From Candidatus Poribacteria bacterium (GTDB lineage Bacteria > Poribacteria > WGA-4E > WGA-3G): a DNA stretch of 64,000 bases. The stretch is taken from positions 26,292-90,291 of the forward strand of contig JAAXHL010000056.1 in assembly GCA_012270865.1 (NCBI GenBank). The letters are read 5' to 3'. The notes beneath the pieces are model-generated. The model made no database searches. It saw only the letters and a program-made list of their open reading frames with translations, and was not told the origin of the DNA. The translations under genes and the position numbers were made by a program. Shown here one piece after another: positions 13,479 through 63,680 of the stretch. The first letter of the stretch is position 1. Every line of letters begins with the position of its first letter.

Positions 13479-13654
13479 GTAGGAGCGAGCTGCGCTCGCG
13501 ATCCCTTAACCACACGCTCGCGATCCCTTAACCACACGCTTAGTAGGAGCCAACTGCGCTCGCGATCCGTTAGCCACACGCTTAGTAGGAGCGAGCTGCG
13601 CTCGCGATCCGTTAGCCACACGCTTAGTAGGAGCGAGCTGCGCTCGCGATTCTC
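13479..13654. repeat. 42-bp tandem repeat (~4.5 copies), each unit with a GCGAGC-TGC-GCTCGC palindrome
   Basis: Unit cttagtaggagcgagctgcgctcgcgatccgttagccacacg, read directly. Lies between the convergent modC and coaE genes. No spacers, so it is not a CRISPR array. Confidence 0.9.
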
Positions 13655-23360: not shown

Positions 23361-23434
23361 GTGGGAGTGAGATATACGGAGACGCATGTGAAAACAAAAA
23401 CGCATTCTAACGAACCGCAAGGTATAATTAAAAA
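23361..23434 (+). repeat. start-proximal leader repeat, copy A
   Basis: gtgggagtgagatatacggagacgcatgtgaaaac...ctaacgaaccgcaaggtataattaaaaa. Same family as 44014..44127, 50282..50465 and 63437..63680. Confidence 0.7.
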
Positions 23435-23453: not shown

Positions 23454-24305
23454 ATGGCACCTTATCTCTTTATTGCACCGTTTTACCTGCTCTTCGTCGT
23501 CTTTATGGGGTATCCACTCATTTCGTCCCTTGTGATGAGCCTCTATGAGATGCGCGGATTCCAAAGCCGGATATTCGTCGGTCCCGATAACTTCACCGAT
23601 CTATTCGGCGACCCGATCTTCTGGAAATCGCTTCGGAATACGGCATATTTCGCCATAGGCACGCTCACCCTCCAGTTACCGATTGCCCTATTCTTGGCGA
23701 TCCTGCTGAACTCCAAGTTCGTCAAAGGCAAAAATTTCCTGCGACTCGCCTTTTTTGCACCGGTACTCGTCGCCGGTGTCTTCGTCGCGATTATTTTTAA
23801 TCTCGTCTACGACCAACGTGCAGGCTTAGTCAACCAAGAATTTATTCTCTTTGGCAAGGAGATCGGTTGGCTGAACGAGGAGAAGTACGTGATGCCAGCA
23901 GTTATTCTGACAGGCGTTTGGCAGTGGGCGGGTTTTAATATGATCTATTTTTTGGCGGGTCTACAAGGCATCCGACAGGAGTTATATGAGGCAGCAGCGG
24001 TTGACGGTGCGAACTGGTGGCAAGCGTTTATCCATGTCACACTTCCGTCGTTGCGTCCGGTAATCGCATTTGTATTCGTTGTGTCAATGATCGGTTCGCT
24101 CCAACTCTTCGATCTACCGTACATCTTGACAAACGGTGGCGAACCTGCAGATGCCGGTTCGACGATTGTGATGTATCTCTATAAAAACGGTTTCCAATTC
24201 ATGCGCCTCGGTTATGCAGCGACAATCGGTTGGGTGCTGTTTTTCATTATCGCTATCGTCTCAATCGTCCAGTTGAAATTACTCGGTATCTTCCAAGAAG
24301 AATAG
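23454..24305 (+). CDS. sugar ABC transporter permease (MalF/UgpA-like)
   Basis: The track ORF starts at GTG 23361 inside the repeat. The ATG at 23454 gives MAPYLFIAPFYLLFVVF, a typical permease N-terminus. EAA loop YEAAAVDGANWWQAFIHVTLP. Confidence 0.85.
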   Translation: MAPYLFIAPFYLLFVVFMGYPLISSLVMSLYEMRGFQSRIFVGPDNFTDLFGDPIFWKSLRNTAYFAIGTLTLQLPIALFLAILLNSKFVKGKNFLRLAFFAPVLVAGVFVAIIFNLVYDQRAGLVNQEFILFGKEIGWLNEEKYVMPAVILTGVWQWAGFNMIYFLAGLQGIRQELYEAAAVDGANWWQAFIHVTLPSLRPVIAFVFVVSMIGSLQLFDLPYILTNGGEPADAGSTIVMYLYKNGFQFMRLGYAATIGWVLFFIIAIVSIVQLKLLGIFQEE

Positions 24306-31581: not shown

Positions 31582-31593
31582 ATATTATGTTTA

Positions 31594-31670
31594 GGACTTA
31601 CGCAATTTTCTATGTGTTATCTGCGATAGGCGGGGTTACAAACCCCGCCTACAAAGGGGTTGCGTAAGTT
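31594..31670. terminator. nested palindrome between convergent genes (possible bidirectional terminator)
   Basis: Outer ACTTACGCAA / TTGCGTAAGT around inner GGCGGGGTT-ACA-AACCCCGCC (31629-31649). A degenerate copy of the inner motif lies at about 47703-47725. Confidence 0.5.
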
Positions 31671-31732
31671 CTAATGTTATAGAAACGGGTTATCAAAATC
31701 AGGGTTTCAGGGTTTTTCCTTCATGAGGACGT

Positions 31733-42877: not shown

Positions 42878-43957
42878 ATGTTACTCGATGTCTATTCATA
42901 TAAACAATCTCAAAAACGCAGGAAAACTCGAAACGCATTTTTTGTATCCTTAGTTCTGCACACTATCGCTATCGGAATTATGAGTTTCAGTTACATCCAC
43001 TGGTATCGTCCGATGTTGCCTTCGGAGCCACTCGTGTCGGAAGCGATTTCAGTGACGGATTTTCAACGTTTCCATGTCAGCAGTACCCGCAAACGTTCGA
43101 TGCCAGCGCAGCGTTCTACGCCTGTGCCTACGGAAAATTCGCCTGCTACGAATCAGAACGTTGCGAAACTACAACATTCGGCGCCGCCAACGCTGTCCAG
43201 TGCGTCGGTTCCGGTGTTAAGAACAGATGCCCGACTCCCGATGGCAGAGACCACACTCCGTGAACAGAGGATAGAAAAACCGGCATGGAAAACGATCGCG
43301 ACAGCACAGGCACAAGCCCCTACAATCGCACCGAAACCGAAAACCGTCGAAGGAGAAACTGCGTTAGACGAAACCGCAGCGAATCAGGGACCCGCAGCAC
43401 CTATCGACAGAGACGCACGGATGGGAGAGGCACTCGAAGGCATCGCGGAGAGCATCGCCGATAGTGAAACCGATGAAGCAGTTGACCTCGTTTTTCTGCT
43501 TGACATTAGTGGGAGTATGATAGATAATATCCGTGCAGTCGGTAGACAGTTGAATCGAATGGTAACGGTATTTCAAGAGAAAGGTATTGACTTCACGCTC
43601 GGCATCATTATTTTCAGGTATCTTGAGAGTGACACAATTATCCATCCGCAAACGCGAGATACCGAAAAATTCAAACGGTTGCTAACGACGCATGTTGTTG
43701 CTGGTATGGGTGATGAACGGGCACACAATGCGATTATAAAAACGATTCGTCGCGTCGATTTCCGTGAAGACGTGAACCGTCGATTCGTACTTGTTACCGA
43801 TGAAGGTACTAAAGGTTCTTACACGCTATCAGACGTATTAAAGCAGTGCTTTCAGAACAACATCACTATAGATGTTATCGGCATTAATAATTGGACGCAT
43901 CAAGCGTTAACAACGAAAACCGGAGGACTCTGGTACCCCATCCCAATACAAGAATAG
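42878..43957 (+). CDS. membrane-anchored von Willebrand factor A domain protein
   Basis: 359 aa. One TM, then MIDAS DLVFLLDISGSM. Confidence 0.8.
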   Translation: MLLDVYSYKQSQKRRKTRNAFFVSLVLHTIAIGIMSFSYIHWYRPMLPSEPLVSEAISVTDFQRFHVSSTRKRSMPAQRSTPVPTENSPATNQNVAKLQHSAPPTLSSASVPVLRTDARLPMAETTLREQRIEKPAWKTIATAQAQAPTIAPKPKTVEGETALDETAANQGPAAPIDRDARMGEALEGIAESIADSETDEAVDLVFLLDISGSMIDNIRAVGRQLNRMVTVFQEKGIDFTLGIIIFRYLESDTIIHPQTRDTEKFKRLLTTHVVAGMGDERAHNAIIKTIRRVDFREDVNRRFVLVTDEGTKGSYTLSDVLKQCFQNNITIDVIGINNWTHQALTTKTGGLWYPIPIQE

Positions 43958-44013
43958 TTTTCAGTTTCCAGTTTTCAGTTTTCAGTTAAGAGGTTTACTT
44001 TTAACGGAAACTT

Positions 44014-44127
44014 AGCCCGTAACGAAGTGGAGGGCGGGTATACGGAAAAGCACTTCAAACTTCCAACCCGCCTAAACGAACCGCAAGGAACATTAAAAAA
44101 AACGAACCGCAAGGGAAAATTAAAAAT
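44014..44127 (+). repeat. start-proximal leader repeat, copy B (distal half duplicated)
   Basis: agcccgtaacgaagtggagggcgggtatacggaaaagcacttcaaacttccaacccgcctaaacgaaccgcaaggaacattaaaa..., ending directly at the ATG at 44128. Confidence 0.75.
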
Positions 44128-44892
44128 ATGAAATGGTCATTGAATACTTATCAGACCTGCCAAGAATGGGAATTAGGAAAGATACTTGACACCGCCGAAG
44201 CGACCGGCTATCACGGTGTCGAATTGTTAATGGACTACAAGCAGCAACATGGATTCGAGTGGGATACGCCAAGAGAGGCGTGGGACGGCTTGAAAGCAGA
44301 AGTCGATGCGAGTGGCGTTGTCATCTCCTCGCTTACGAGTTGCCAAAATTTCCATTCCGAGAACGCCGCCGAGCGCGAGGAGACCGTCCGCCGTGTTTCG
44401 CGCGTTATTGACATGGCGGAATTTATGGGATGCGATCATGTTCGCGTGCTCGGGGACCGGTATTCGGAAGATAATCGCGATGCAGTCGTCGGGTACGTCA
44501 CAGACGGATTGAAGGCTCTCGGCACTTATGCCGGTGAGAAAGATATTACCGTCTCTATCGAGATGCACGGCTCTTTCACGGATCCCGATTCGGCGATGGA
44601 AGTGATTGAAGGTGTGAATCTCGGAAACGTCGGTTTCGTTTTCAATTCACAATTTGTAGGATGCGATGCTGGCAGTATTGAACCGCTCTTTTCGCGCGTC
44701 GCTCCGCACATTACCGCAGTGCATACGCACCGGATTGAAGAACCGGCAACGTTTGAACTCTACCGACAGATGTTCCAATGGCTCGATCGCATCGGTTTCT
44801 CAGGCTACATCTCCAACGAATGCGCTTATACGGGACCTGACCCTGAAAAGGTGCTTGCCCTCTACGTCGGACTTTTCAAAGCGTTTGTGTAA
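44128..44892 (+). CDS. sugar phosphate isomerase/epimerase (xylose-isomerase-like TIM barrel)
   Basis: 254 aa. GYHGVELL, HVRVLG and SIEMHG motifs. Confidence 0.8.
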   Translation: MKWSLNTYQTCQEWELGKILDTAEATGYHGVELLMDYKQQHGFEWDTPREAWDGLKAEVDASGVVISSLTSCQNFHSENAAEREETVRRVSRVIDMAEFMGCDHVRVLGDRYSEDNRDAVVGYVTDGLKALGTYAGEKDITVSIEMHGSFTDPDSAMEVIEGVNLGNVGFVFNSQFVGCDAGSIEPLFSRVAPHITAVHTHRIEEPATFELYRQMFQWLDRIGFSGYISNECAYTGPDPEKVLALYVGLFKAFV

Positions 44893-49791: not shown

Positions 49792-50277
49792 CTACAGCTC
49801 ATGAATCGTTGCCCCAAGCGTTTCTGTATCCACGACAGCGACCGTTGCCTTCCCTGTCGTCCATCCACCTGTTTCGCCAGGATTAATCAATAGGGATTTT
49901 CCCTTTTGGATGTCTATCTTGTGGGTGTGTCCATAGACGACGATGTCGTAATCGCCGCTTTTGGCAATCGGCATAGCGAGTTCGGGGTAGTGCATCACGG
50001 CGATGTTCCTGTCTCCAAGCGACACACTCGCGAGGTTAGGGTGTACCTCGCCACCGATGGCTTCAAACCGTTTCGCAACGACGATGCGTTCGCCGTCATT
50101 GTTTCCGAATACGCCGACAACGCGGCAGTTCAAGTCTCCTAACGGATCGATAGCAAACGGCGCGATAAAATCGCCAGCATGGACGACGAGATCCACACCG
50201 AGTTCGTTAAAAAGTGCGACAGCGCGCTTGACATTTGGGATGTTGTCGTGGCTGTCAGACATAACACCAAGTTTCAT
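49792..50277 (-). CDS. YfcE/MJ0936-family metallophosphoesterase
   Basis: The ATG at 50277 gives MKLGVMSDSHDN...VVHAGDF...GNNDGE...GHTH. The track ORF's extra 56 aa are a translation of the upstream tandem repeat. Confidence 0.85.
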   Translation of the reverse strand: MKLGVMSDSHDNIPNVKRAVALFNELGVDLVVHAGDFIAPFAIDPLGDLNCRVVGVFGNNDGERIVVAKRFEAIGGEVHPNLASVSLGDRNIAVMHYPELAMPIAKSGDYDIVVYGHTHKIDIQKGKSLLINPGETGGWTTGKATVAVVDTETLGATIHEL

Positions 50278-50281
50278 AATT

Positions 50282-50465
50282 TTAATGTTCCTTGCGGTTA
50301 GACGACGTGGTTTGTGTTTTGACGGTTTCCGCTCAAGACCGTCCTCCACTTCGTTTCGGACTACGGTTTCGTTGTTTTTAATATTCCTTGCGGTTAGACG
50401 ACGTGGTTTGTGTTTTGACGGTTTCCGCTCAAGACCGTCCTCCACTTCGTTTCGGACTACGGTTT
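50282..50465 (-). repeat. start-proximal leader repeat, two tandem 96-bp copies (C1, C2)
   Basis: Near-identical units at 50282-50369 and 50378-50465. The proximal unit ends ...aaccgcaaggaacattaaaatt-ATG. Confidence 0.9.
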
Positions 50466-50479
50466 TGTTACTATTTCAT

Positions 50480-62729: not shown

Positions 62730-63650
62730 TTATAAGTTTCTATCAATCCACGCCACGACTTTTTCGACCATGACAGGGCTGCCGTCGTCAGAAAAGACGT
62801 GGTCTACACCGGGAAGCTCAAGGAGCTCTGTGTCTTCGTTTGCGAACCGAAGGATGTCGTGACTATCTTCAATCGGAACGATGTCGTCTTCTGTACCGTG
62901 CACCAATAGCCACGGCACGGCAAATTTACTGGCACGTTTTGCGACGCTGTCAATCGTTGCCATATCGTCGATGTATGCCTGTGAGAGCGGACAATCCGGT
63001 TCGTCCCACATGAAACCCTCGTCGGGTACAGCATCGCTGAATTCACGTTCCGCGAACGCTTTGGTATGCACCATCCCGGCAAGCGAAACAAGTGCTTCAA
63101 TGCGTTCATCAATAGCAGCGCGCAGCACACCAACTGCACCGCCCATGCTATGTCCGACGTAGCAGACTTTGTATTCGCTGAGTGCGTCAATGACTTTACC
63201 GAGATCCGCGACCTCTTTGGTAATAGTGGAATCTGTGAATGCGCCCTCGGATTCACCGTTGCCGGAGAAAGAGAAGCGTAAGGCAGAGATACCCGCAGCG
63301 GCAAGTCCTTCTCCTAAAGCGACAAGCGCGGGTCTGTCTTTGTTGCCTGTAACGCCGTGTCCGATCACTACAATCCTGTCGCCTTCACCTTCATGAAAGG
63401 TATAATCAAGGCGTTCACCGTGTTCGTTTCTAATTATTTTAATTTTCCTTGCGGTTCGATTAGGCAGGTTGTATAAATGAAGTGCCTTTTCGTAAATCCG
63501 CCCTCCATTTTGCGGCGTACTCGCCCATAAGCGATCTGCTTCATTACGGGCTATGCCTCTGTTAACTCTCGTTGGAAAGGCTTGCGGTTCGATTAGGCAG
63601 GTCGTATAAATGAAGTGCCTTTTCGTAAATCTGAAGAAATACCCAAGCAA
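62730..63650 (-). CDS. alpha/beta hydrolase (true start probably AUU at 63434)
   Basis: GHSMGG nucleophile elbow and HGTEDDIVP. The first ~72 codons of the track ORF translate the leader repeat. No ATG, GTG or TTG is available near the expected N-terminus. Confidence 0.75.
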   Translation of the reverse strand: MLGYFFRFTKRHFIYTTCLIEPQAFPTRVNRGIARNEADRLWASTPQNGGRIYEKALHLYNLPNRTARKIKIIRNEHGERLDYTFHEGEGDRIVVIGHGVTGNKDRPALVALGEGLAAAGISALRFSFSGNGESEGAFTDSTITKEVADLGKVIDALSEYKVCYVGHSMGGAVGVLRAAIDERIEALVSLAGMVHTKAFAEREFSDAVPDEGFMWDEPDCPLSQAYIDDMATIDSVAKRASKFAVPWLLVHGTEDDIVPIEDSHDILRFANEDTELLELPGVDHVFSDDGSPVMVEKVVAWIDRNL

Positions 63651-63680
63651 AACCCCTCCATTTCATTACGGGCTACGCGT
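63437..63680 (-). repeat. start-proximal leader repeat, two copies (D1, D2)
   Basis: cttgcggttcgattaggcaggt[t/c]gtataaatgaagtgccttttcgtaaatc occurs twice, at 63448-63499 and 63581-63630. The upstream halves (cccgtaatgaa[a/g]...) also match copy B. Confidence 0.8.

Follow-up and report, generated by a model that had tools for sequence, protein, structure and literature searches.

An oriented leader repeat docked at start codons in one genus of Poribacteria, with a probable role in translation initiation

Introduction

Dispersed repeats that lack terminal inverted repeats (TIRs) and lie in the sense orientation upstream of unrelated ORFs have been described in Neisseria (REP2, also called CREN) and on Borrelia plasmids (IR-A/IR-B) (Delihas 2011, PMC3184786). 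REP2, for which that article cites the work of Morelle et al. 2003, is 120-150 bp long, occurs in about 26 copies, and carries a recognised promoter as well as its own ATG (PMC3184786). MIRUs, as summarised in one account (PMC12548453), are short, oriented and often tandem units which insert at start codons between the genes of operons and preserve downstream expression. As far as that account goes, downstream translation depends on an internal ORF that is coupled to the start codon with a -4 spacing (PMC12548453).

Here, we describe a repeat of ~90 nt in the genome of a sponge symbiont, a Candidatus Poribacteria bacterium (assembly GCA_012270865.1), using as point of reference a stretch of 64,000 nt from contig JAAXHL010000056.1 (positions 26,292 to 90,291 of the forward strand, hereafter the window). 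No publication linking Poribacteria with such a repeat was found. The unit resembles REP2 and the Borrelia repeats in architecture only: it has no TIRs, a 5' stem-loop and a 3' RBS, its adjoining ORFs are in the sense orientation, and it gives rise to translated extensions. Unlike REP2, however, it measures only ~90 nt, is present in ~230 copies, shows no sigma-70 promoter match at the two loci scanned, is mostly intercistronic, occurs in tandem arrays and in a 5'-truncated series, and has one covarying hairpin. The intercistronic position, the co-directional setting of 92% of arrays, the 1-4 copies per array and the landing at start codons are shared with MIRUs, but there is no coupled ORF: in the frame of the tail TAA, most subfamily-I copies have a further stop about 24 nt upstream, and the interval between the two stops contains no start. 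The junction also differs from that of MIRUs, as the tail is followed directly by ATG instead of forming ATGA or TGATG, and the Poribacteria unit brings an SD-like AAGGA.

With REP/BIME elements, the unit has in common a GTAG before the hairpin in about 60% of copies, a high copy number, and mosaic clusters, whereas its stem is of 4+2 bp with a large conserved internal loop, and the outer GTAG/CTAC pairing holds in 63% of cells only. REP/BIME elements lie at the 3' ends of genes, while the Poribacteria copies lie at 5' ends in a fixed orientation, and the Y1 genes of the genome are not flanked by them. MITEs such as the Correia element of Neisseria, and the palindromic elements of Rickettsia, are likewise non-coding, high-copy and lineage-specific, can alter the expression of their neighbours, and are readable in frame; the present repeat differs from them by the lack of TIRs, the lack of a target-site duplication (TSD) in 59 comparisons, and its strict orientation and phase relative to start codons. 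It is neither a MITE, a REP nor a riboswitch, but a leader repeat of the REP2/MIRU kind that is unusually abundant, precisely docked and demonstrably constrained.

Results

Repeat copies in the window

Related copies had been predicted at four loci of the window (23361-23434, 44014-44127, 50282-50465 and 63437-63680), and all of them were found both by direct reading and by a repeat finder, which ties the loci together through families D5, D8, D10 and D13 and the inverted pairs I1-I8. When the 3' pattern AACCGCAAGGNANATTAAAA was searched with at most 2 mismatches, 6 matches were obtained in the window, compared to 0 in 100 shuffles. The copy at 44011..44100 (+) is a full-length member of subfamily I (nhmmer match C44+70300, E 2e-20) and comprises a 5' hairpin, a variable middle, the core AACCGCAAGG at 44079-44088, and an A/T-rich tail at 44089-44100. 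Its hairpin (44015..44035, +), which covaries across the family and reads G-CCC-[G UAA C-GAA-G UGGA]-GGG-C, contains a 4-bp outer stem, a purine-rich internal loop, a 2-bp inner stem, and a GNA triloop. At 44101..44127 (+), the 3' module is repeated as a 27-nt duplicate (core 44105-44114 and tail; repeat family D8), which abuts ATG 44128 of the TIM-barrel gene, the distance from AAGG to ATG being 13 nt; such duplications of the 3' module recur at more than 10 other loci. Heptamer tandem repeats of the AGTTTTC and CAGTCAG types are located at 43958-43992 (+), between the upstream stop and the leader repeat. They are also present at many orthologous loci, and seem to build up only at sites where the spacer, owing to the leader repeat, no longer has to serve as RBS.

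The copy before the permease gene (23373..23434, +; core 23413-23422) is truncated at its 5' end, covering model positions about 28-92, and lies 31 nt upstream of the permease ATG at 23454. Two tandem copies of family D5, 98% identical to each other, precede the metallophosphoesterase gene on the minus strand. The start-proximal copy (50278..50373, -), with its hairpin at 50341-50361, AAGG ending at 50290 and a 12-nt tail, places AAGG 12 nt before the ATG at 50277-50275, and the distal copy occupies 50376..50469 (-). The orthologous metallophosphoesterase junction in the congener G054 (A111) reads GCATAAAcagagaggacTTAAAAATG and is free of the element.

In the copy at 63435..63555 (-), the hairpin loop is enlarged by a 30-nt insertion, AAGG lies at 63450-63447, and a 12-nt tail follows. 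The start codon that had been placed directly after it does not exist: the tail abuts ATT 63434, 12 nt after AAGG, and the native ATG-TTT-GGT-GAA of the alpha/beta-hydrolase gene, i.e., the ATG and three further codons, is missing. The copy upstream of it (63581..63677, -; families D10 and D13) carries a 23-nt insertion (GTTTTGCTTGGGTATTTCTTCA-type) after the hairpin and is truncated after AAG (..AACCGCAAG). As anticipated, some ORF calls are inflated by the repeat, namely 49792..50445 and 62730..63650. Both kinds of insert were observed elsewhere. In many copies (L001, L008, L012, L016 etc.), a 21-23-nt insert, GTTTTTGCTTGGGTGTTTCTTCA, replaces CG just 3' of the hairpin (63601-63623 of the window, -), and a 30-nt insert, GCAGATCGCTTATGGGCGAGTACGCCGCAA, recurs within the hairpin loop (63507-63536, -). 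Their presence varies between close orthologues, as if they had been exchanged between copies.

Copy number and distribution

In the host genome (5.28 Mb in 223 contigs, 48% G+C, 93% complete), the core 10-mer AACCGCAAGG occurs 206 times, compared to about 9 occurrences expected from composition. A total of 228 copies were identified with an nhmmer profile, including 138 full-length ones; 5' truncation is common and 3' truncation is rare among them. The ~90-nt unit is composed of a 5' hairpin, a locus-specific middle, the almost invariant AACCGCAAGG, and a 12-nt A/T-rich tail, and its consensus is (AAAAC)GCGTAGCCCGnAAYGAARTGGAGGGCGGATcTACGGAAAGG..C.T.AAA...CAAACCCACCT.ACCGAACCGCAAGGAAAATTAAAAAA-ATG, with the 3' end ..TTACTCCGCAAGGTAAATTTAAAA in a third subfamily. 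No terminal inverted repeats are present, as the 5' (AAAAC)GCGTAGC.. and the 3' ..AAGGAAAATTAAAAAA of the consensus are not inverted complements. There are 193 arrays, of which 168 consist of one copy, 22 of two, 2 of three and 1 of four; together they account for 0.35% of the genome, and the junctions within tandem arrays are variable and reuse A-rich flank sequence.

Other repeats were seen alongside. A 42-nt tandem repeat at 13479-13650 (+) has the classic REP layout, with units that start with GTAG followed by a perfect palindrome (GTAGGAGCGAGCTGCGCTCGCGA); the same unit also adjoins leader repeats on contig C90. The three Y1 (RAYT-like) transposase genes of the host may have this tandem repeat as their actual partner. 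In addition, no 10-12-mer is more frequent in the genome than AGGACTTACGCA with its complement (about 400 copies; 31593-31604, +, and 31661-31672, -, in the window). Its copies flank a CCCCCTAAATCCCCCTTATCAGGGGG-type palindrome as inverted pairs, have the look of a distinct family resembling MITEs, and sometimes break the TTAA of the leader-repeat tail (contigs C51 and C134).

Of 56 genomes sampled from the window's genus, 55 contain the strict 3' pattern, with 1-116 copies each and 96 in the host genome. Bar single chance-like matches, neither the sister genus (about 45 genomes) nor any other family, order or class sampled in the phylum has it, and reversed-pattern controls gave 0. BLAST with the 93-nt consensus returned 19-411 first-look candidates per genome within the genus, and none or at most few weak matches (E about 1e-6) elsewhere in the family. 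Within this sampling, the repeat family is restricted to one genus.

Position relative to genes

The 222 copies with an intact 3' end were divided into position classes, with a threshold of at least 60 codons for the adjacent ORF. In more than half of them (118, 53%), AAGG is followed after 8-16 nt by an ATG, GTG or TTG that opens an ORF of this length, and the start is ATG in 109 cases (92%). The spacing from AAGG to the start peaks at 12 nt (64 copies), with 16 copies at 11 nt and 27 at 13 nt; placement at 11-13 nt reaches 48% (107 of 222 copies), compared to 1% under uniform intergenic placement, which represents a 47-fold excess. For 41 copies (18%), the next feature is another copy or a 19-27-nt duplicate of the 3' module, and 20 copies (9%) are separated by 17-60 nt from a downstream start with an intact native SD. 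A further 19 (9%) face a long open frame that lacks a canonical start where one would be expected, and 21 (9%) have no adjacent ORF of at least 60 codons, although some have a short one. The original prediction, in which the repeat always sits immediately upstream of a start codon, is therefore borne out as a strong preference and not as a rule.

The upstream gene is co-directional in 154 of 167 arrays (92%) and divergent in 13, compared to a background of 77% (p = 2e-7). Collected over the whole genome with their distances and orientations, as had been proposed, the copies are neither randomly placed nor randomly oriented. Truncated copies without the hairpin are flush with starts as often as full copies (the hairpin is partly or wholly missing from 90 of the 228). 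The downstream genes are unrelated: Pfam annotation of a random sample of ten proteins gave GH32-like, KduI, SDR, DUF402, MORN and PPIase, among others.

Random insertion followed by selection was rejected as the sole cause of the flush position, since 118 copies are flush and only 20 lie upstream of a native SD, while the flush class offers far fewer positions. One copy (A57, a C57-type locus) is flush with an ATG that is not a start, located in AAAATGGAGG of the native SD region 18 nt before the real start. This case hints that A-rich sequence followed by ATG, and not the function of the gene, is what docking reads.

Comparison of filled and empty sites

Filled sites were compared with the congener G054, a genome with one strict copy, of which 2.8 Mb were used. 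For 109 of the 193 arrays, both flanks could be placed in this sequence, and 59 start sites were cleanly projected. None of these 59 orthologous G054 sites carries the core, and 50 have their own SD-like tetramer, with a peak at -11. Homology upstream of the start is no longer than in shuffled locus pairs (0 shared nt in 30 of 59), and hence the right junction is flush with the start codon. Moreover, the homology blocks of filled and empty sites never overlap in the 59 comparisons, which means that no target duplication is present. The native G054 spacers (median 66 nt; 1-14 nt at seven loci) are unrecognisable in the host genome. At docked sites, the native intercistronic spacer, including the native Shine-Dalgarno, has been replaced up to the ATG.

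Particularly clean cases are a G054 junction reading ..TTTTCAATCC, g and ATG, where the host has a 137-nt insert, and one reading ..GGAGGAATTG, tg and ATG, where the host has two copies. At six sites, GTG or TTG in G054 corresponds to ATG in the host, with one site showing the opposite direction, as if the transferred block included the ATG itself. At the TIM-barrel locus, the genes abut in the sister genus (..CAGGAGTAGAATTATATG), while within the genus heptamer repeats and 1-4 copies of the element are mostly present, and a few genomes are empty there or have only AAGGAAAATTAAAAGAATG. In general, the same locus may have or lack the element in different species, with 1-4 copies where it is present.

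The original prediction also offered a MITE with strong insertion-site preference. The preference is real and amounts to the 47-fold excess at start codons, whereas the TIRs and target-site duplication of such an element are both lacking. Two candidate duplications were considered and discarded: TTAAA is found in only about 12 of 82 left flanks, and ATG occurs within 12 nt of the left end about as often as by chance, with no overlap in the empty-site comparison.

Genes without a canonical start

Genes of the start-less class have lost their native ATG and 1-5 codons to overwriting, as comparison with an element-free congener revealed; examples are aroE (ATG to ACA) and an FAD oxidoreductase gene. 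About 9% of element-linked genes have ATT, CTG, ATA or nothing at the junction (63432-63450 of the window, -; contigs C49, C83, C143 and C64). Orthologues of the alpha/beta-hydrolase gene read ATG TTT GGT GAA ATT AGA.., while seven element-bearing genomes read ..AAAAAAAACGAA directly followed by ATT AGA... Two of these seven have no in-frame ATG, GTG or TTG, and their ORF is still intact, with 91-94% identity. The integrity of ORFs without a canonical start across species suggests that initiation may take place at near-cognate codons; for the 19 copies before start-less frames, either near-cognate starts (ATT, CTG) are used or the genes are impaired. As judged from the filled and empty junctions, docking would occur at A-rich sequence ending in ATG, or at A-runs within the first codons, a behavior unlike cut-and-paste.

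A covarying hairpin at the 5' end

Pairing of GGGCGGGT with ACCCGCC in one window copy and of GACGGT with ACCGTC in another had been put forward as possible covariation. These segments occupy non-corresponding positions and show no covariation across the family; the covarying hairpin is that at 44015-44035 instead. Mutual information over 124 distinct full copies gave 7-23, 8-22, 13-17 and 6-24 as the top pairs. Counted over 94 distinct hairpin regions, pairing amounts to 97.9% in the helix 5-8/22-25, where each of the 4 pairs has changed on both sides, and to 98.9% in the helix 12-13/17-18. The family-wide test that had been called for thus supports a 5' hairpin, with compensatory changes in every stem pair. 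None of 500 shuffles reached the observed hairpin score, and slid partners are only 27-44% paired. Between the helices lies an invariant purine-rich internal loop (G9, A11 / G19, G20, A21), and a GNA triloop caps the inner one. When all helices of 4-6 bp were scanned, covariation was obtained for the 5-8/22-25 stem only; no other helix covaries, and a second stem-loop is unsupported. GCGG or GUGG could pair with the core CCGC (about 90% pairable), with both sides being invariant.

The MFE of the whole unit is not below that of shuffled sequences (z = -0.3), and thermodynamic stability of the unit as a whole was accordingly dismissed. AAGGA is predicted to be mostly unpaired (mean 0.58). The Rfam 15 covariance models gave 0 matches at gathering score across the window; at 43900-44200, nothing rose above noise (E above 4). 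Mimicry of rRNA was likewise set aside, as no hairpin-like motif is present in the sense rRNA of contig C79. Wobble pairs proved uninformative for strand assignment, and for the choice between RNA and single-stranded DNA, with about 10 G-U and about 9 A-C stem exceptions.

Constraint on orthologous copies

Pairwise divergence was calculated for two sets (A and B) of nine orthologous copies at the TIM-barrel locus. The 4-fold degenerate sites of the adjacent gene diverge by 0.47 in set A and 0.43 in set B, and the non-repeat 5' flank by 0.39 and 0.30, respectively. Within the repeat, the values for sets A and B are 0.11 and 0.03 in the hairpin, 0.15 and 0.06 in the middle, 0.04 and 0.02 in the core, and 0.19 and 0.15 in the tail, which is the least conserved part. 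Orthologous copies thus evolve 3-10 times more slowly than flanking and 4-fold sites. The middle of the window copy is closest to its orthologues (0.59-0.68, compared to 0.48 or less for paralogues in its own genome), and this copy has therefore been inherited in place. On the other hand, the 5' and 3' halves are mosaic, and close orthologues differ in whether they have the 23-nt insert (L003 vs L008), which implies some exchange between copies. Such exchange could account for part of the slow evolution. Since whole copies, and above all the hairpin and the core, change several-fold more slowly than neutral DNA, they have probably acquired a cis function locus by locus. The conservation in place argues for a cis function of the hairpin, which would most simply be exerted in RNA.

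Signals for translation and transcription

The 3' end of the 16S rRNA (..GGATCACCTCCTTTCT / ..CACCUCCUUUCU) has the canonical CCUCC, which is complementary to AAGGA. Native genes are SD-led, with a sharp tetramer peak at -11 and an AAGG peak at -13, and show no TANNNT or -10-like peak at -12/-13. The AAGG of the element starts at -16, i.e., on the outer shoulder of the native spacing and three nt beyond the native optimum. Because the native SD is gone, the element holds the only SD-like sequence before about 120-160 genes, and its 3' module probably works as a translation-initiation region. No match to a sigma-70 -35/-10 promoter was found in the sense orientation at two loci, although a -10-like hexamer is present and Poribacteria promoter rules may differ. 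With regard to the promoter/RBS cassette that had been proposed, the RBS part is supported by the loss of the native SD at docked genes, and the promoter part lacks a sigma-70-type match at these two loci.

Candidate mobilisers and regulators

Several candidates were examined and rejected. The genome has three PF01797 genes, and neither the hairpin motif nor the core is found within 1.5 kb of any of them, so that no association with mobilisation of the RAYT/IS200-IS605 type was seen. Retroposition had been suggested by the A-rich tail, TTAAAA and the 5' truncation; however, RVT_1 is absent from the host, with its 96 strict copies, and from three other high-copy genomes, while two are present in the zero-copy genome G106. 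Regulation of the CsrA type was excluded by the absence of PF02599 from this 93%-complete genome.

Discussion

We consider it probable, with moderate confidence, that this genus-restricted, oriented and dispersed repeat is a portable translation-initiation leader of the REP2/MIRU type which is now under functional constraint. The AAGGA of the core would pair with the CCUCC tail of the 16S rRNA and, together with the unstructured A-rich tail, would form the initiation region of the downstream cistron on a leadered and often polycistronic mRNA. As our best guess, the hairpin acts in RNA, as a processing, stability or protein-binding site for that cistron. New copies may arise by replacement, or docking, at A-rich sequence ending in ATG, and may then undergo local tandem duplication, 5' erosion and exchange between copies. 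Several observations weigh against the leader reading: AAGG lies three nt outside the native optimum, the invariance of AACCGC goes beyond what an SD role explains, the fold of the whole unit is no better than that of shuffled sequence, 19 copies face frames that lack a canonical start, exchange between copies could account for part of the slow evolution, and the stem exceptions favour neither strand, nor RNA over single-stranded DNA. The repeat may also be a cis-regulatory RNA leader, as offered by the original prediction: its 5' hairpin covaries and is conserved in orthologous copies, but no Rfam family matches.

An alternative is that the repeat is essentially selfish: the hairpin would be a single-strand DNA site of some mobilising enzyme, the RBS-like tail would make insertions tolerable, and conservation would result from overwriting. 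Its confinement to one genus, strict-match counts that vary between genomes from 0-2 up to about 116, loci that are empty in some species and hold 1-4 copies in others, and the mosaic halves and insert polymorphism between orthologues would all fit such a history. GNA triloops closed by C-G are notably stable in DNA; the wobble counts, for their part, give the RNA strand no preference. We nevertheless regard this alternative as unlikely. No candidate enzyme was found. The element does not adjoin any of the three Y1 transposase genes, reverse transcriptase, of which the host genome has none, does not track copy number, and both TIRs and TSD are missing. In addition, the middle is common to orthologues and not to paralogues and still evolves 3-7 times more slowly than the flank, which argues for constraint in place and against overwriting. 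Less likely still is a portable promoter for leaderless mRNA, in which the hexamer after AAGG (AAAATT, TAAATT or TATAAT) would serve as a -10 box and transcription would start 6-7 nt later at the A of ATG, making the downstream gene independent. The modal copy does have the corresponding geometry of hexamer, 6 nt and ATG, positions 2 (A) and 6 (T) of the hexamer are its best conserved, and ATG makes up 92% of flush starts, with 6 changes from GTG/TTG to ATG and 1 in reverse. However, there is neither a -35-like element nor a sigma-70-type match in sense at the two loci scanned, and leaderless expression is not the habit of this genome, whose native genes are SD-led without a TANNNT peak at -12/-13. 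The final T of the hexamer has been lost in orthologues (AAAATC, AAAATA, AAGATA) while AAGG is invariant, and the tail that holds it is the least conserved part (0.15-0.19). Leaderless initiation requires a 5' AUG, and genes with ATT, CTG or no start at the docking point stay intact across species; furthermore, 92% of arrays lie within co-directional gene strings.

The hairpin loop and/or the AACCGC box might instead be bound by a dedicated RNA-binding protein, so that the repeat would be the operator of a genus-wide post-transcriptional regulon co-regulating roughly 4% of genes. Invariant loop residues, covarying stems and the conservation of AACCGCAAGG beyond SD needs are in line with this idea, and the co-regulated REP2-linked genes of Neisseria provide a precedent (PMC3184786). 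Against it, the downstream genes are functionally unrelated, the copies without part or all of the hairpin (90 of 228) are flush with starts equally often, CsrA, the obvious binder of GGA loops, is absent, and no Rfam family matches; we rank it as the least probable of these readings. A broader version of the translation-initiation leader can also be formulated, which we put forward as speculation with a small but real chance of being correct. The repeat would be a self-propagating, standardised translation-initiation cassette that docks at start codons by an undescribed transposase-independent process and makes independent cistrons out of compact operon junctions coupled in translation. A dedicated lineage-specific RNA-binding or processing factor would then recognise it by the invariant hairpin loop and the AACCGC box, placing about 4% of genes under one post-transcriptional control point.

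If the translation-initiation leader is confirmed, it would be the largest and cleanest natural mobile 'RBS part', in which a 90-nt unit has replaced the native initiation regions of roughly 160 genes in one genome, has been tolerated or favoured in operons, and has then been selected. It would also offer a natural experiment on the interchangeability of translation-initiation regions and on the decoupling of compact operons. The flush landing at start codons without a transposase signature is a mechanistic problem that the repeat has in common with MIRUs and REP2. On the practical side, the repeat misleads gene callers in Poribacteria MAGs, which yield spurious N-terminal extensions and genes with non-canonical or missing starts, and it serves as a sharp taxonomic marker for one Poribacteria genus.
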